Below, piece after piece: positions 24,901 to 42,900 of a DNA stretch of 64,000 nucleotides. The DNA comes from an uncultured Planctomycetota bacterium. Lineage in GTDB: Bacteria > Planctomycetota > Planctomycetia > Gemmatales > Gemmataceae. The first letter of the stretch is position 1; every line of letters begins with the position of its first letter. The stretch covers positions 64,001 to 128,000 of the forward strand of contig CAWKHF010000001.1 of assembly GCA_963849325.1 (NCBI GenBank). Reading direction: 5' to 3'. Position numbers: made by a program.

Positions 24901-27900
24901 GCTGTCCGCCCCGGCAGCCGCGACAGAGCACGCCGTTGGCCGACGGACTGAAGGCCAGCTCCGTTTCCAGCGACCGGCCCGCCGCAGCCGGCACAGTGAT
25001 CGAGGACGGGGCTATACCCCAGCTCGCGCAGCAACACCATCTCAAATCGCGCCATGCGCGGCCCACATTCGACCGTTCGCGGTCCCGCCTCCGTCAAGCC
25101 GATTTCCCGCAGCGTGTCCAGCGGCCTCGTCGAACAGCGGCGGATGCGGATCGTAGTCCTGCGTCCAGTCGGCCAGCAGCTCGGCGACGTAGTAGGCGGC
25201 ATACAGGGCGGCGAGGTCCGTCCGCAGCCGCGGGAATCGCTGGATGACCTGGGCCTCCGTCAACAGGTCCAGACTGCCCGATGATTTGCGGAGGAAGACG
25301 ATACTGCACAGCGGTCAGCAAGTCAAGGGCATTCTCGAAGTTGGACTTGAGCCGCCGTCCCGCCCTTGGCCAGGGCGCGCACCTTGCCGAACTCGCGCGT
25401 CCACAAGGTGGCGATGCGGCTGCTCTCGCTCCAGTCGGTGGTCCGCAGCACCAGCGCCATGCGCCTTCTCCGCAGACATGCGTAACTCCAAATAACCACC
25501 ACAATAAAGAATAACTTCGTTTAGCCGCGACGCGCAGCGGAGCGCGGGAGTCTCCGCGCTCCGCTGCGCGTCGCGGCTAAACTCTTCTACTCCGCGATGT
25601 CGGGCAGACCGAGTTGCGCCAGGTAATGGCGCTCGCGCTCGACGCATGGCGGCCCGGTCGGCGTCGTCGTGGTCGTCGTAGCCGCACAGGTGCAGCAGGC
25701 CGTGAATGACGTAGAGGGTCAGCTCCGCCTGCACGTCATGGCCGCGAGCGGCGGCCTGCTCGACGGCGACCTCGACGCCGAGGACCAACTCGCCCGCCAG
25801 CTTCGCCGCGCTCGGCTCGCTGAGAGGAAAGCTCAGCACGTCGGTCGGCTCGTCGTGTTGCAGATAGCGTTGATTGAGGCGATGAATGGTGGGGTTATCG
25901 ACGAAGGCCAGGCTGATCTCGTAATCGGCCACGTCCTCGCCGGCCAGGACGGCGCGCACCGCTTCGCGCATGCGGCCGCGGTCGATGGGCACGATCTCCT
26001 GCGGGCTGGCGATGGAGATGCGACTCATGATGTCACGCACAGACGTCGGCGAGCGGGGTCGCGTTAGCGCCCCGAGGGAAGCACTCGGGGCGCTAACGCG
26101 ACCCCGCTCGCCTCATTGTATCACGCCGGCACCGGCGGTTCCTGCTGCTCCTGGCGCTCGACGCTGAGGACGGTGGCCTGGCCGCGCTCGTCCAGCTCGA
26201 CGCGCGCCGACATCACCGTCGGCGTCTCGCCGAGCACTTCGCGGGCCAGGGCGGCGTAGTCCTCGGCGCCGTGGCAGTGCGGCGCGTAGGCGAAGATCGA
26301 CTGGCCGAAGCTCGGACACTCCGCCAGCTTGATGTTGCGGCGGATGCGCGTGCCGAAGATGCGCGCCTTGGCCCACGGAGCGTTGGTGCCGCGGCTCTTG
26401 TCGAGATAGTCCTGCAAGTCCTGCACCACTTCCTGCGCCAGCCGCGTGCTCGACTCGTACAGCGACAGCACGATGCCCGTCACCTTCAGGGCCGGGTTGA
26501 TGCGCTTGGCGACGAGCGCGGTCGTCTCGAGCAGCTTGCCCATGCCGTGCAGGGCGAGGAAGTGCGGCTGCAAGGGGATGAAGACTTCGTTGGCCGCCGA
26601 CAGGGCGTTGAGCGTCAGCACGCCCAGCGACGGGGCGCAGTCCATGAAGACGAAATCGAAGGCGCCTTCGTCCTGCAGCAGCAGGTCGCGGAGGATGACT
26701 TCGCGGCCGACGACGCCGGCCAGCTCGACCTCGGCGGCGGCGAGGTTGATGTCGGAGCCGGCCACCCACAGGTTGTCGCTCGACCTTGCGGCGCACCTCG
26801 GCCAGCGGCCGGTTGTTGACCAGCACGTCGTACATCGACGGCGACTTGCCGTCCGGTTCGATGCCGAGGTGGGTGGTGGCGTGGGCCTGCGGGTCGAGGT
26901 CGAGGACGCAGACGCGCTGGCCGCACTCGGCCAGGGCCGCGGCCAGGTTGACCGCCGTGGTCGTCTTGCCCACGCCGCCCTTTTGATTGATGATCGCGAT
27001 CCGTCGCATGAGTGGTCCTCGTTTGGGGCCGTCCGTGGTTCCTTTACGAGAACGGGGATTATACGGCGGACGGGCAGAGGCGCGAACCCCAAGGCGAGGC
27101 CGCGACATGGTATCATGAACACCATATCTCCGTTTAGCCGCGACGCGCAGCGGAGCGCGGAGTCGCGCTCCGCTGCGCGTCGCGGCTAAACGGAGAATGG
27201 TCACGAGGTCTGCCATGAGCGCATGGAAACTGGACGTTCGCCCGGAGGTGGCCGACGCCCTGGAAAGGCGTCGGCCCGTGGTGGCGCTGGAATCGACGCT
27301 GATCACCCACGGCTTGCCGTGGCCGACGAACCTGGAGACGGCGCGGGCGGCGGAGGAGGCCGTGCGCGCCGAGGGAGCGGTGCCGGCGACGGTGGCGGTG
27401 TGGCAGGGTCGGCCGGTCATCGGACTCGACGCGGCGCAGCTGGAGCAGTTGGCGCGGCAGCCGGACGTGCGCAAGGCCAGCAGCCGCGACCTGGCCGCCG
27501 CCGTCGTCCAGGGCGCCTTCGCCGCGACGACGGTGGCGGCGACGATGGTGCTGGCCCATCGCGCCGGTCTGCGCGTCTTCGCCACCGGCGGCATCGGCGG
27601 CGTCCACCCCGGCCGCAGCGGCGCGGCCTTCGACATCTCCGCCGACGTGATCGAGCTGTCGCGCACGCCGGTCGCCGTCGTCTGCGCCGGCGCCAAGGGC
27701 ATCCTCGATCTGGCCGCCACGCTGGAAATGCTGGAGACGATGAGCGTGCCGGTGGTCGGCTATGCGACCGACGAATTCCCGGCGTTTCTGCTGCGGTCGA
27801 GCGGTCTGCCGGTCAGCGCCCGCGTCAACTCGCCGGCAGAAGCGGCGGCCTTGCTCGACGCTCACTGGCGCCTGGGCGGCGCAGGCGTCGTACTGGCCCA

Positions 27901-39900: not shown

Positions 39901-42900
39901 ATTGGGAATGTCGCTCAGCTTGAGGCGATAGATCGACGCTTGCAGGAAGTTGTAGCGTGCCGGCGCTTCGAGGAACTGCGGCCCGAAGCCGCCGCGGCCG
40001 TCGGCGGTCGGTCCATACCAGGCGATCTTCATGCCGGCCGGGCCGACGAAGCGCACCTCGGTGCGCTGAATGGGAAAAGGCGCGGCCACGCCGCCAGTGA
40101 GGGCGCCGACGGCGGCGACGGCCCCCGGCGGACGCATGCCCGGCGGCAAAACGCCCGGCGGCATGCCGGCGATGCCCGGCGGCGAGATCAGTTGTCCCGG
40201 CGGCATCAGGCCCGGCGGCATCGGACCACCGGCCCCCGGCATGGGGCAGGCGCCGCCGGCGCACTGTCCGCCGACCGGCACGATCGGCAAAGCGCTATCC
40301 TTGAAGTAGCCGCTCTGCTGGACCAACTCCAGCGGCATGCTCTGCGCCAGCATGGCGCGAGCGGCATCCGTCCCGTTGGGCGGCTTGACGTTGTACGGCG
40401 CCGCCATCGCCACGGGTTGACCCCACGGGCCTTGCACCGTCGCCACCTCCGGCATCGACTGCGGACCCCAATGGACGCCGTCGGGCGCCTCCTTGTTCCA
40501 GTACTGGCTCATGAAAGGCCCGCCCAGCGCCGAGGCCGCGCCGCCGCCCAGCACGGCCAGGAGCAGCAGGATCGCCCGGGTTCGCTTCATACTTCCCCCC
40601 TAGTTACGGTTAGCCTGTTCCGGCGAACGGTTTCCCACCAGCCCGGAGCGCTAGCGACGGGTTGCTACAACCCGTCGCTAGCGCTCCGAGCTAGTAGGTC
40701 ATCGGCGCACCCCGAGGGCGACGCGCAGTGTCCAGTTCGTCTTTTGTCTTTCCCCTCCTGTGGGTATAAGTCGGCCCGCCGTGCGGATGATCTTTCGTCA
40801 AACCCGGAAGGCTTTACCCATGTGGATGTACCGATTCCTTCTGGCGATTCTCGGCGGCAGCTGCCTGGTGGTCCTGTCGGCCACGTTGACGCGGACGGCG
40901 GCTTCCCTGGCTCCCGTCGCTTCCGCGGCCGTCGCCGCTCCCGCCGCTGCCGAACTTCCCGCGATTTCGCCCGCTCCCGATCCACGGCCGGACCCCGAGG
41001 CCGAGCGCGGCATGGAGCGGGCCATCGAGGCGCTCAAGGGCGATCGCTTCGTCTGGCAGGAGATGGCGATCTGGCAAAAGGTCCAGCTGCCCGGTTACGC
41101 CTACGAGGCGGACGGATGCTACCGGATGGCGCCGGGACAGCGCTTCCGCCTGGAGATGCACACCCACCTGGGCGAGTCCGAGGGCACGATGCTGATGGTC
41201 AGCGATGGCCGCGATTTGTGGCAGGCCGTCCGTTCCGGCGAGGGACCGTGGGAGAACGTCACGCGCCTGAACCTGTCGGAAGTGTTCGCCGTTATGAATG
41301 GCCCATCGGGACCGCGGCTGCGCGACGAGTTCCTGCAACGGCCGCATTTCCAGGGCATGGCGCCGCTGGTACGCAACCTCCGCCATTGCCTGGTATGGGC
41401 GCGGATCGAGACGATCGAACGCCCTGCCGGCGGGCAGATTCACTTGGTCGGCGTCTGGTCGAAGGAGGACGCGATCCGGCACGCGCCGGCGGGCGAGGCG
41501 TGGCCGGCCGGCTTGCCGCGTCAGTGTCATCTGTACCTCGACGCGCGCACGCACTGGCCGCAGCGCGTCGAGTGGTGGGGTCCTCACGCCGCCGCGGGCG
41601 CCGACCGCTTGCTGGTGCAGATGGAGTTCCGTAATCCCGTCTTCGACCGTCCCTTGTCGGCGGAGGCGTGCGAACGTCTGTTCGCCTTCCAGCCCGGCGA
41701 CGCCGAGGTCGAGGACGAAACCGCGAGCGTGACCGCCGACCTGACCAACCGTGCCCGCGAGCTGGCGGCCCAAACGGCGACGCATTAGAAGGTCCAACAA
41801 AATGAGCCTCACGCAAAGGCGCGAAGAACGCAAAGGAAAAGAAAATGGAGACCCAAGCGACTCGCGCCTCTTTTTTGTCTTCCTTTGCGTTCTTTGCGCC
41901 TTTGCGTGAGGCTCTTCATCTTCAATCCACATACGGATCGGCGCCGAGATCCTTGAGGATTTCCTGGCGCTGGTGTTCGTGGACGAGCAGATCGACGCGG
42001 CTACGGAAGTGGCGGCGTTCGACGCGGCGCTGGGCGCGGCGAAACAGGAAGAGGTACTTGTCCCAGTCGAGGTTGCCGCCGCGCCGGCCGAACTCCTTCC
42101 ACTTCTCCTGCGTCCGGGGGCCGAGTCCTTCGAGCAGCTCGTCTTCCAGCGACAGGAAGAACTGAGCGCTGCCGGGGTCGCCCTGGCGTCCGGCGCGGCC
42201 CATGAGCTGGCGGTCGATGCGCAGCGCTTCGTGCCGCTCGGTGCCCAGGACGTGCAGGCCGCCGGCGGCCAGCACCTCGGGAGCCGGCTTGATGTCGGTG
42301 CCGCGGCCGGCCATGTTCGTGGCGATCGTCACCCGACCCGCCTGGCCCGCCTGGGCGACGATCTTCGCCTCCTGCTCGTGCTGCCGGGCGTTGAGCACCT
42401 GATGCTCGATCGCCCGCCGCCGTCAGCCGTTCGCTCAGCTTCTCCGACTTCTCCACCGAGCGCGTGCCGATCAGCACCGACCGGCCCCCGGCACGCAGTC
42501 GGCACCACCTCCTCCACCACGGCGTCGAACTTGGCGTCCTCGGTCGGGAAGACGCGGTCGGGCCAGTGGTCGCGACGGATCGGCCGGTTGGTCGGCACGC
42601 ACACCACCCAGAGCTTGTAGACGCGGCGCATCTCCCAGCGGTTCTGCAGGGCCGTGCCGGTCATGCCGGCCAGCTTCTTGTACAGGCGGAAGTAGCTCTG
42701 GAAGGTGATCTGGGCGGCGTGGTCGGACGGCATGTGTGATCGGCACGCCTCTCCTTGGCCTCGACGGCCTGGTGCAGCCCCTCGCGCCAGTGGCGATCCG
42801 GCATGCGCCGGCCGGTGAACTCGTCGATGATGACGATCTTGTCCTTGTCGATCATGTAATGCTGGTCGCGGCGGAAGCGGTAGTGCGCTTGCAGCGCCTG

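Follow-up and report, generated by a model that had tools for sequence, protein, structure and literature searches.

Long perfect hairpins are confirmed as a genuine feature of the planctomycete genome studied here (G000; 8.16 Mb, Gemmataceae), in which 1,030 of them were counted with loops of up to 30 nt and overlaps removed. On balance they are probably copies of two kinds of small mobile palindromic repeats, which colonise spacers just behind stop codons, and we read them as young elements of two classes. Class A, with about 85% of the hairpins, is interpreted as GC-rich elements resembling REP dimers, and class B, with about 15%, looks like the gene-less form of cargo cassettes of about 450-500 nt. 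In the following, positions without prefix refer to the 64-kb stretch of DNA that was analysed (the window), and those with C1, C5 or C6 to contigs of G000; the congener used for comparison is G007.

Number, families and position of the hairpins

Perfect hairpins with stems of at least 18 bp numbered 803, 1,178 and 1,509 with loops of up to 12, 30 and 60 nt, respectively, and 791, 1,030 and 1,174 without overlaps, a range into which the 1,118 hairpins of an earlier survey fall. In the non-overlapping set stems have a median of 26-27 bp and a maximum of 49-57 bp, and in a third-order Markov simulation of 2.70 Mb no stem reached 15 bp, while 38 measured 12-14 bp. When families were defined by a 14-mer seed with up to two substitutions, 27 of them covered 936 of the 1,030 hairpins (91%), the largest two having 247 and 198 members; the survey had given 17 families with a coverage of 92%. 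Tandem-periodic arms occur in 180 of 1,174 hairpins, with a period of 7 in 146, 8 in six, 9 in 22 and 10 in six, in line with the inverted tandem heptamers described in the survey.

Gene ends were taken from our own crude ORF caller (7,450 ORFs in G000). The 1,030 hairpins are distributed over tandem spacers (554), convergent spacers (262), divergent spacers (90) and the inside of called ORFs (124, 54 of them deep), where frameshifts in the assembly, as in ybeY and groEL, make some called gene ends and some 'inside gene' hairpins unreliable. Measured from the stop codon, hairpins begin at a median of 11 nt, or of 14 nt if tandem spacers alone are taken; the survey gave 17 nt. Stems of at least 12 bp were present in 16.9% of 3' flanks (1,256 of 7,450), against 6.5% for divergent spacers (74 of 1,137) and 0.3% for coding windows (153 of 47,329); the survey's finding of 22%, 2.6% and 0.1%, based on different gene calls, points in the same direction. 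Convergent spacers carry about twice the hairpin load of tandem ones (0.249 vs 0.124 per spacer). Of 554 tandem-spacer hairpins, 29 have TTTT within 10 nt downstream when the sense side is read and 26 when the antisense side is read; random intergenic sites have it in 89 of 5,595 cases. The lack of U-tracts stated in the survey is supported in so far as they are no commoner on the sense side than on the other. The groES-groEL spacer, for which a hairpin had been noted at C1:295864-295945, is filled by a single one at C1:295862-295947, with the groEL start 7 nt beyond, and at 149 of the 554 tandem-spacer hairpins a called start codon follows within 30 nt.

Hairpins of the window

All nine hairpins formerly assigned to 25519..40688 were found. 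They are listed, without strand, together with the adjoining ybeY:

25519..25582, hairpin of class A, family 1 (GTTTAGCCGCGACGCGCAGCGGAGCGCGG); stem 29 bp, loop 6
25587..26040, minus strand, ybeY, with Pfam YbeY domain
26048..26112, hairpin of class A; stem 29 bp, loop 7
27127..27196, hairpin of class A, family 1; stem 33 bp, loop 4
31179..31245, hairpin of class A, family 1, TTTCGCC variant in both arms; stem 31 bp, loop 5
32513..32585, hairpin of class A, family 1; stem 34 bp, loop 5
35196..35285, hairpin of class B, arms (AGGGAAT)n / (ATTCCCT)n; stem 34 bp, loop 22
37245..37309, hairpin of class A, family 3; perfect stem 28 bp (31 nt at 97%)
38996..39065, hairpin of class A, family 1; stem 32 bp, loop 6
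40634..40698, hairpin of class A, family 9 (CCCGGAGCGCTAGCGACGGGTTG); arms 31 nt at 90%

The hairpin at 25519..25582, with a predicted RNA fold of -74.6 kcal/mol (z -11.4), follows the stop codon of ybeY (TAG, 25587-25589, minus strand) at a distance of 4 nt; the YbeY domain and the conserved C-terminus (...GLPDIAE, stop) lie in different frames, which indicates an assembly frameshift near the 3' end of this gene. The hairpin at 26048..26112, with GGCGAGC and then a mini-hairpin with GTTA loop in each arm, fills the spacer from the stop of an AAA_31 gene (26121) to the ybeY start (26040), where congeners possess hairpins of unrelated sequence. Two others occupy divergent spacers, namely 27127..27196, between the AAA_31 gene and an Indigoidine_A (psuG-like) gene, and 40634..40698, with a perfect core at 40644-40688 (21 bp, loop 3). 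The hairpin at 31179..31245 begins 10 nt past the stop of a plus-strand ORF (end 31169), that at 32513..32585 begins 22 nt past the stop of a VWA gene (end 32491), and that at 38996..39065 lies 20 nt beyond the stop of a minus-strand ORF (39085-40590). Behind 32513..32585 a short hairpin with a T-run is located at 32591-32614. The hairpin at 37245..37309 occupies the spacer of two convergent ORFs with ends at 37243 (plus) and 37316 (minus), and each of its arms consists of GGCGAAC, GCCGGC-GTCA-GCCGGC and TGGT. The class B hairpin overlaps the 3' end of a DUF1501 ORF (34438-35211), and its AGGGAAT heptamer also flanks a four-helix-bundle gene at C6:188575-189050.

Class A

Hairpins of class A have arms of 68% GC and are made up of two identical REP-like units in one fixed orientation with a loop of 3-12 nt between them. 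Arm order is fixed, with zero or one reverse-order neighbour in 12 of the 13 repeat families tested. In one superfamily the unit comprises GGCGA(A/G)C and a small hairpin of its own, closed by a GTNA loop; the stem of this mini-hairpin varies between families by compensated changes. Unpaired single arms account for 86 of 642 core occurrences of family 1.

REP sequences, BIMEs and REPINs with their RAYT transposases are known from Enterobacteria and Pseudomonas, and GTAG- and CGTC-tagged REPs have been reported from the PVC group, too. Like class A, these elements are short, GC-rich and palindromic, number in the hundreds, lie mainly downstream of genes and between convergent genes, frequently form inverted dimers foldable as one long hairpin and vary in family size and type among related species; in some REP dimers the spacer is just 1-2 bp, and others are inserted within palindromes (PMC3733652). 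The layout of class A is that of REP homodimers or REPINs. Unlike in REP/RAYT systems, however, no RAYT gene, flanked by repeats or otherwise, was found in the G000 assembly, which is 85% complete and could have missed one; the sole Y1_Tnp match is truncated and below both NCBIfam cut-offs, and no family hairpins flank the Y1_Tnp genes at the eight loci examined. In contrast to GTAG-tagged REPs only one small family (seven members) begins with GTAG, and in contrast to REPs almost every dimer is a perfect homodimer with a loop of 3-12 nt (in family 1, 247 of 278 pairs form a perfect stem of at least 18 bp), with some 27 families side by side in one genome.

Class B and cargo genes

Class B arms have 48% GC and consist of tandem units of 7-10 nt. 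The corresponding cassettes have a gene in the loop, which encodes either a four-helix-bundle protein (the 23S rRNA IVS protein, TIGR02436) or a GxxExxY PD-(D/E)XK protein. In G000 there are no more than two genes of PF05635 and one of PF13366, and all three lie between inverted tandem-repeat arms that match the hairpin families AGGGAAT, AGTTCTG and CGCAAAGN. Throughout the genus exact inverted flanks of 15-41 nt surround 12 of 13 GxxExxY genes, the 13th having imperfect arms, and of the 17 genes for IVS proteins 14 have exact inverted flanks of 17-42 nt. Among 29 further genomes of the phylum, 11 show flanks of at least 14 nt (none in the control), and the elements span roughly 400-530 nt.

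The 23S IVS of Coxiella measures 428-444 nt; its ends pair as a stem of 28 bp, it contains tandem heptamers, its loop encloses an S23p ORF, and it is cut out by RNase III (PMC4990558). The IVS of Coxiella, Leptospira and Salmonella share with the cassettes described here a total size of about 430-500 nt, terminal inverted repeats forming a stem of about 28 bp with tandem heptamers in the arm, and a four-helix-bundle ORF inside the loop (PMC4990558). Unlike the IVS, the cassettes sit after stop codons of protein genes, and both 23S genes of G000 (2,881 and 2,884 nt) matched the whole model without large insertion; the same architecture also holds a second cargo, the GxxExxY nuclease, and most copies are without ORF (about 180 hairpins). 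Tandem heptamer repeats are known from cyanobacteria as STRR. Heptamers of cyanobacteria and Beggiatoaceae resemble ours in being intergenic, with 2-6 tandem units, a family-specific unit and a patchy phylogeny, but those repeats are direct and mostly just upstream of start codons, with one of 170 sets inverted (TAACTGA repeats, PMC4679880), whereas our arrays are inverted pairs that follow stop codons and bracket cargo genes.

Persistence of sites and turnover of families

The commonest family, represented by a 23-mer of its arm, occurs 452 times in G000 and 2-65 times in eight of ten congeners, the same proportion as stated before; 2-4 occurrences were detected in two of 14 other genera of Gemmataceae and none in 16 genomes outside the family. 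In G007 the dominant variants keep the outer GTTTAGCCGCGA module with a differing middle, and the GGCGAAC family has a different, compensated mini-stem, both orientations being present.

For 82 orthologous spacers, from G000 and 400 kb of G007, a hairpin was called at an imperfect inverted-repeat score of at least 13 (maximum in shuffled sequence 12). Of these spacers, 21 had a hairpin in both genomes and 42 lacked one in both, while five were occupied solely in G000 and 14 solely in G007 (odds ratio 12.6, Fisher p 2.6e-6); nine of ten convergent spacers were occupied in both. At the 21 shared sites the arms have any 8-mer in common in four cases and are unrelated in 17, and in some of the latter a class A hairpin in one genome faces a class B hairpin in the other. 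Sites thus tend to stay occupied although the family that fills them changes. The former view that structure is kept while the family turns over holds as a tendency, but not absolutely, since 19 of the 40 hairpin-bearing sites are filled in one genome only. Genes flanking the hairpins are 13-27% diverged from those of congeners. The window's own spacers showed a perfect stem of at least 12 bp in eight of 21 comparisons with congeners, and by eye seven more display long imperfect or long-loop inverted arrays; upstream of ybeY a hairpin is present in most genomes compared, and upstream of the psuG-like gene an inverted repeat in five of 20 related genomes, with one additional weak case.

Origin and role of the hairpins

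Copies differ little from each other. Variants private to one copy were found in one arm in 86 cases and in both arms in nine, a rate of about 0.3% (about 38,900 arm positions, 745 pairs) that is biased downward because only arms within one mismatch of the seed were counted. Of the 1,030 hairpins, 41 are enclosed by a further exact inverted repeat of at least 10 nt, against 12 in the control, and some of these nests join different families (e.g., C5:277282, C5:437122); in 40 of 561 copies the stem runs at least 6 bp into copy-specific flank, where 4.3 were expected. Target-site duplications of at least 2 bp were not above chance among the 1,030 hairpins (73 observed, 87 expected), in agreement with REP elements and HUH transposition, which proceeds without them. 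As neither such duplications nor an insertion between near-identical strains were caught, and no moving enzyme was identified in the G000 assembly, the case for mobility, which we infer, rests on copy number, copy similarity and patchiness; the nested hairpins and extended stems suggest that new copies would tend to insert into pre-existing palindromes. Correia/NEMIS elements of Neisseria and MITE-like repeats are likewise abundant intergenic inverted repeats, co-transcribed with their neighbours into RNA hairpins that are cut by RNase III; Correia/NEMIS, however, come with a TA duplication and enclose a core of 100-150 nt between their terminal inverted repeats, unlike the hairpins described here, with a loop of only a few nt and no duplication above chance.

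The persistence of sites fits selection for a hairpin equally well. It is possible, if rather unlikely, that many gene ends need a strong stem-loop, as U-less terminator or 3' stabiliser, for which any available repeat family provides the sequence. The tight spacing behind stop codons, the surplus in 3' flanks, the doubled load of convergent spacers and their joint occupation in both genomes are what this would lead one to expect; canonical hairpin-plus-T sites are weakly enriched in the region (21 vs 12.2 shuffled, sd 3.6), E. coli REP sequences stabilise upstream mRNA, and symmetric hairpins of convergent spacers could serve both genes, as in intrinsic terminators including the U-poor 'I-shaped' candidates of high-GC bacteria. 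However, unlike intrinsic terminators the present hairpins lack a U-tract, have stems far longer than usual and form multi-copy families, and some of them lie within operons, like the one just ahead of groEL, or shortly before the next called start, while 90 are in divergent spacers and nearly half of the occupied orthologous sites are filled in one genome only. Isolated mismatches on the sense strand comprise 38 G.U and 51 A.C (p 0.2), hence no G.U excess, and perfect duplexes of more than 20 bp are classical RNase III substrates rather than protective ends. Mycobacterial RNA polymerase is reported to require a U-tract (PMC3993855). The hairpins are thus probably not transcription terminators, and the terminator or stabiliser role proposed in the survey, with selection acting on RNA structure, is not supported, given the groES-groEL hairpin, the 149 hairpins near starts, the lack of a wobble excess and the families of near-identical copies built like known mobile palindromes.

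Quasipalindrome mutagenesis provides a known basis for palindromes being made, lengthened and kept perfect locally by replication template switching, starting from single REP-like units instead of being pasted whole. We regard this as improbable. Stem extensions of 6-16 bp into copy-specific flank, 38 of 40 of them distinct, the nine private variants present in both arms and the unpaired arms of family 1 speak for it, but outer unique stems would equally arise from older palindromes hit by an element, and the predominance of one-armed private variants argues that correction is not the main cause of perfect stems; hundreds of near-identical copies at unrelated loci and class B cassettes with cargo are left unexplained. 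Even less probable is an action at the DNA level, through cruciforms or protein sites (gyrase, nucleoid proteins, recombinases) that organise supercoiling or replication, with the location at gene ends being secondary. Palindromes that are strand-symmetric, perfect as DNA and devoid of a wobble signature, and that occur in divergent spacers, too, would suit it, and E. coli BIMEs bind gyrase and IHF; yet no binding protein was identified, the many unrelated sequences speak against a single sequence-specific binder and the tight spacing to stop codons is not accounted for.

Where they are transcribed, the hairpins would yield perfect RNA duplexes of 18-57 bp without U-tract, which are expected to act as RNase III substrates or exonuclease blocks, processing or ending transcripts without being intrinsic terminators; RNase III is encoded in G000, and cleavage by it appears plausible by analogy. 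With new copies landing at existing palindromes, little divergence within families and different dominant families in each congener, a site would persist while its sequence is replaced.

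Number, families and fold of the hairpins

The assembly of the genome under study comprises 8.16 Mb in 14 contigs (C1, C2 and so forth) with about 65% G+C, and DUF1501 is among the genes of the window. For one window gene, the nearest named relatives were metagenome bins of Gemmataceae (Planctomycetota). With our own finder, perfect stems of at least 18 bp were recovered 803, 1,178 and 1,509 times at loop limits of 12, 30 and 60 nt. These correspond to 791, 1,030 and 1,174 non-overlapping hairpins, respectively, in which stem length has a median of 26–27 bp and a maximum of 49–57 bp. 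No stem longer than 14 bp arose in 2.70 Mb of sequence simulated with a third-order Markov model. The survey's finding that perfect hairpins accumulate at gene ends in this genome was thus confirmed, with 1,030–1,174 non-overlapping hairpins, nine of them between window positions 25519 and 40688 (hereafter the span). Greedy seeding yielded 27 families, which cover 936 of the 1,030 hairpins, the largest two having 247 and 198 members. Two classes are distinguished here, GC-rich hairpins resembling dimers of REP elements (class A, about 85%) and hairpins with arms of tandem 7–10-mers (class B, about 15%). Eight of the nine hairpins within the span are GC-rich and one is built of AGGGAAT repeats; RNA folding gave -69 to -75 kcal/mol for the span's hairpins, with z-scores of -9 to -13.

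An Rfam scan of the window returned no family at the gathering score. An assembly artefact was ruled out, since separate assemblies of congeners hold the same hairpin families, and so was a reading as attC sites of an integron, as the hairpins are perfect palindromes scattered over the whole genome. The ACGGAT-type repeats were also considered as a CsrA sponge, a reading set aside because the motifs are buried within perfect stems.

Position relative to genes

Gene ends were taken from our own hexamer-based ORF caller (7,450 ORFs, 76% coding). Against these, tandem spacers hold 554 of the 1,030 hairpins, convergent spacers 262 and divergent spacers 90, which amounts to 0.124, 0.249 and 0.081 hairpins per spacer, respectively; the other 124 fall within called ORFs, 54 of them deep inside. 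The distance from stop codon to hairpin has a median of 11 nt overall and 14 nt in tandem spacers, and a stem of at least 12 bp occurs in 16.9% of 7,450 3' flanks; among 1,137 divergent spacers the share is 6.5%, and among 47,329 coding windows 0.3%. The earlier placement of the hairpins just after stop codons thus holds. The called stop codon of the upstream ORF is included in 209 of the 1,030 hairpins, and 373 carry TAA, TAG or TGA within the outer 10 nt of an arm. In some cases the stop codon may come from the element itself; the hairpin at window 35196-35285, for instance, overlaps the end of the DUF1501 ORF.

The real stop of ybeY lies 4 nt short of the hairpin at window 25519-25582. The conserved C-terminus of this gene (window 25587-26040) was found in a different frame, and groEL (C1:295300-297700) appeared as two overlapping ORFs, at locus positions 655-1542 and 1293-2399. 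Both splits are probably due to indel errors in the assembly, which would fit its completeness of 85% and the low coding fraction of 76% in called ORFs; part of the class inside ORFs and some of the gene ends are therefore artefacts. At window 32591-32614, 6 nt behind the long hairpin 32513-32585, a short hairpin followed by TTTTCTTTCC was seen, an arrangement that resembles a canonical terminator behind a palindrome.

Turnover between genomes

The commonest arm is present 452 times in the genome under study, 2–65 times in eight of ten congeners and 2–4 times in two of 14 further genera within the family; 16 genomes from outside the family have none. Most of these comparison genomes are fragmented bins, in which repeats may be under-counted. 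Among 21 comparisons of window spacers with congeners, eight showed a perfect stem of at least 12 bp, and in a further seven, inverted arrays that are long and imperfect or have a long loop were seen by eye. Upstream of ybeY, the spacer holds an inverted structure in all seven genomes compared, as perfect stems of 15–30 bp in four and as inverted heptamer arrays in three, with at least five unrelated sequences among the seven. The divergent spacer upstream of a psuG-like gene has an inverted repeat in five of 20 related genomes, with one further weak case.

The congener G007, with 73 perfect hairpins of at least 18 bp in 400 kb, was compared in two ways. A strict protein-synteny test of 56 spacer pairs gave hairpins in both genomes in eight, in the genome under study only in eight, in G007 only in eight and in neither in 32; none of the eight shared sites had a 9-mer common to both genomes, and many sites scored for one genome only actually carry imperfect or long-loop hairpins. 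When the test was repeated by gene-flank projection over 82 spacers with an imperfect-repeat score (shuffled maximum 12), the corresponding numbers were 21, 5, 14 and 42 (odds ratio 12.6, p 2.6e-6), and for tandem spacers alone 9, 5, 10 and 34 (p 0.008). Only four of the 21 shared sites have an 8-mer in common, several pair a class A with a class B hairpin, and at 11 of 21 the offset agrees within 5 nt on at least one side. Persistence of sites is thus well above chance, and gain and loss are also frequent. The turnover described in the survey, in which the structure is kept as its family is exchanged, is borne out by these comparisons.

Class A hairpins compared with REP and REPIN elements

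The G+C content is 68% in non-periodic arms and 48% in periodic ones. In class A an arm is always followed by its reverse complement (n=278 pairs in family 1, n=223 in family 2), and neighbours in reverse order number 0–1 in 12 of 13 families tested; this agrees with REPINs, whose two inverted REP units are able to pair as a single hairpin. Where a position is polymorphic, as is the N of a central GTNAG, both arms mostly carry the identical base. One superfamily is composed of GGCGA(A/G)C, a mini-stem of 6–8 bp, a GTNA loop and the returning mini-stem, and differences in the mini-stem are compensated both between families and between the genome under study and G007. The arm forms a mini-stem-loop of its own, so it corresponds to a REP-like stem-loop and the long hairpin to its homodimer. 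A member of this superfamily occurs in both orientations in G007, where variants of family 1 keep the outer module and differ in the middle; a covarying mini-hairpin in family 1 itself was dropped as a candidate, no consistent pairing being visible by eye. As read by eye, family 17 (seven members) starts with TGTAGGG, G007 holds GTAGGGTGGGTCGAG hairpins, and the large families start with CGTTTAGCC, TCCGAGCC or GGCGAAC and show no GTAG/CGTC tag.

In REP–RAYT systems the RAYT gene is flanked by the same REPs; here a RAYT gene was not found in the assembly, which at 85% completeness may have missed one. The sole Y1_Tnp match covers profile positions 3-77 of 121, remains under the NCBIfam cut-offs (IS200 51.7 vs 55, RAYT 25.2 vs 80) and has no family hairpin beside it. 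None of eight Y1_Tnp loci examined across the genus is flanked by family hairpins, and the copy of G007 scores as an IS200/IS605 transposase.

Class B arms, cargo cassettes and intervening sequences of 23S rRNA

Arms with a period of 7–10 were found in 180 of 1,174 hairpins and consist of tandem units such as AGGGAAT, AGTTCTG, AGGGGTC, CAGTTGT and ACACGGATA. When inverted repeats with long loops were searched for, small ORFs came to light between heptamer arms. In total the genome has two PF05635 genes (23S_rRNA_IVP, the four-helix-bundle family TIGR02436) and one PF13366 gene (TIGR04256, GxxExxY), and all three stand between inverted tandem-repeat arms whose unit is identical to that of hairpin families, an arrangement termed cargo cassette here.

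Four-helix-bundle cassettes of the genome under study (PF05635, E 1.8e-39; TIGR02436)
C6:188575-189050, inverted tandem-repeat arms around a four-helix-bundle gene
C5:884359-884863, inverted tandem-repeat arms around a four-helix-bundle gene

Apart from these two and the one with the GxxExxY gene, every class B copy is without an ORF; gene-less perfect copies number 45 for the cargo-arm unit AGGGAAT, 48 for AGTTCTG and at least three for CGCAAAGN.

Of 13 GxxExxY genes across the genus, 12 lie between exact inverted repeats of 15–41 nt and one between imperfect arms. Exact inverted repeats, 17–42 nt long and with a heptamer particular to each gene, also flank 14 of the 17 IVS-protein genes examined. 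Arms that are gene-less in the genome under study, e.g. AACCACGAATCACACGAATAA, surround GxxExxY genes in congeners. Directly 3' of ybeY, where the genome under study has the hairpin at window 25519-25582, the congener G003 (C215, L003 430-1000) carries a GxxExxY gene within inverted arms of the GCCAAGG type, and in G001 the same arms stand at this site around a gene-free loop of about 60 nt. Within Planctomycetota, IVS-protein genes were detected in 32 of 81 sampled genomes. With one locus taken per genome, 11 of 29 have exact inverted flanks of at least 14 nt, whereas a cross-locus control gave 0 of 29; the 11 loci are mostly of period 7–8 and span roughly 400–530 nt.

The 23S rRNA IVS of Coxiella is reported to measure 428–444 nt, to have a 28-bp terminal stem and tandem GACAGAT heptamers, to hold the S23p ORF in its loop and to be excised by RNase III (PMC4990558). 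The class B elements share the long terminal inverted-repeat stem and the tandem heptamers in the arm, and two copies also share the four-helix-bundle ORF in the loop. They differ in location, as they follow the stops of protein genes and do not interrupt a 23S rRNA helix; both 23S genes, 2,881 and 2,884 nt long, align with positions 1-2925 of the model and show no large insertion. In a literature search covering mainly openly available journals, no published description of cargo cassettes outside rRNA or of gene-less copies was found.

Some further elements were observed. In the convergent spacer at window 41806-41912, GCCTTTGCGTGAGGC stands on both strands about 70 nt apart and equals the octamer-type arm around the GxxExxY gene at C1:349948-350426; this may be a tenth, long-loop hairpin just beyond the span. 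A segment of about 300 nt with ORFs of 64–99 aa occurs in two copies within inverted arms of 30–32 nt (C7:242412-242767, C12:1309516-1309889), one arm starting like family 2 (GAGCCGGAAGCGTAAGC), and an Rfam scan of both copies gave no match at E of at most 0.1. In G048, another genome of the phylum (one contig, 9.3 Mb), the 23S rRNA IVS protein family is matched 30 times; in many of the matches TGA or TAG recurs in frame at the same positions, which gives the impression of a decaying or recoded multi-copy family.

Divergence among copies and possible routes of spread

Among about 38,900 arm positions (745 pairs), 86 variants private to a single copy affect one arm and nine affect both arms; this figure is biased low by the limit of at most one mismatch from the seed. 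The genes neighbouring hairpins are 13–27% different from those of congeners. Private variants being rare, the perfect stems therefore mainly reflect little divergence among copies and not repair or selection. Sense-strand mismatches (38 G.U vs 51 A.C) give no sign of selection for RNA pairing.

Target-site duplications, which characterize MITEs (cut-and-paste elements derived from transposases), are not seen at the hairpins: edge repeats of at least 2 bp were counted in 73 of 1,030, with about 87 expected from shuffled pairing. The stem continues for 6–16 bp into copy-specific flank in 40 of 561 copies (4.3 expected), and an outer inverted repeat surrounds the hairpin in 41 of 1,030 (12 in the control), some of these being cross-family nests. 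Both features fit insertion into existing palindromes, and they also fit template switching with outward growth. Insertion of REP dimers into existing palindromes is reported (PMC3733652).

Other repeats noticed were a likely insertion sequence of about 1.5 kb with ends ACGAATGGCGTTCGGTTAAGC in at least nine copies (e.g. C12:877722-879230, C7:238134-239643) and another of about 1.3 kb with ends CTCAGTAGTTTCCGGT in at least four (C12:233310-234637). Two very large inverted duplications, C4:537893-540638 with nested arms around C4:539.2 kb and C5:824438-826777 with 885-nt arms containing transposase-like coding sequence, could be real or assembly fold-backs.

Termination or RNA processing

Intrinsic terminators bear a U-rich tract after the stem on the sense strand, which the hairpins lack: TTTT within 10 nt downstream was found in 29 of 554 on the sense strand, in 26 of 554 on the antisense strand and in 89 of 5,595 random intergenic positions, hence no sense excess. 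The groES–groEL spacer is filled by an 86-nt hairpin, whose first base overlaps the TAA stop of groES and which ends 7 nt ahead of the groEL start. A called start codon follows within 30 nt of 149 of the 554 hairpins in tandem spacers, and within 15 nt of 58. The absence of U-tracts, the groES–groEL hairpin, the near starts and the 90 hairpins in divergent spacers argue against efficient termination, and the terminator role proposed in the survey is not upheld.

Perfect duplexes of 18–57 bp are textbook substrates of RNase III, for which the genome has a gene (C2:488851-489225). Since the hairpins form such duplexes and the rRNA relatives of class B are cut, cleavage within the stems is to be expected; by analogy, it would divide neighbouring cistrons from one another and define where transcripts end. 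Blocking of exonucleases would be an alternative role at the RNA level.

Interpretation

With little more than even confidence, we favour the view that the genome harbours a dense population of palindromic elements, REP-dimer-like and IVS-like, that turns over fast and favours existing palindromes at gene ends; effects on RNA would then follow from the spread of the elements. Selection for a hairpin at some sites would also account for structures that persist under exchanged sequences, but the mismatches in the stems bear no mark of selection for RNA pairing, and we regard such selection as a less likely, though serious, rival. A more far-reaching proposal unites REP-like palindromes and IVS-type cassettes in one guild of 'hairpin-homing' elements, in which a new copy would integrate into, or replace, an existing palindrome, the Avd-like four-helix bundle and the GxxExxY PD-(D/E)XK nuclease would serve as mobility or maintenance factors, and the gene-less hairpins would be non-autonomous riders of the cargo-bearing cassettes. 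To our knowledge, neither protein family has so far been assigned such a role. If true, homing would explain why a site outlives its sequence, why classes A and B replace each other in a given spacer and how these same cassettes can enter 23S rRNA stem-loops in other bacteria; we nevertheless consider the proposal of a single guild a long shot. Compared with it, the spread of palindromic elements into existing palindromes remains our preferred reading.

Implications

Palindromic repeats at gene ends have long been known, and the hairpins are of a known kind; new are their scale, the way in which unrelated families replace one another at fixed sites, and the connection of heptamer hairpins with cargo cassettes. 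With about 27 families at persisting sites, it becomes testable whether repeats are kept for the cell or target existing palindromes. As far as we know, the four-helix-bundle '23S rRNA IVS protein' and GxxExxY are widespread small gene families that lack an explanation. The heptamer-armed hairpins tie both to a defined cassette that is also found gene-less and in multiple copies, and this link suggests an origin of rRNA intervening sequences. For annotation it follows that position alone is not enough to call such hairpins terminators. We know of almost no transcript-end data for Planctomycetota, in which the hairpins, by analogy with known RNase III substrates, probably mark processing sites of this enzyme, which would shape operon expression.
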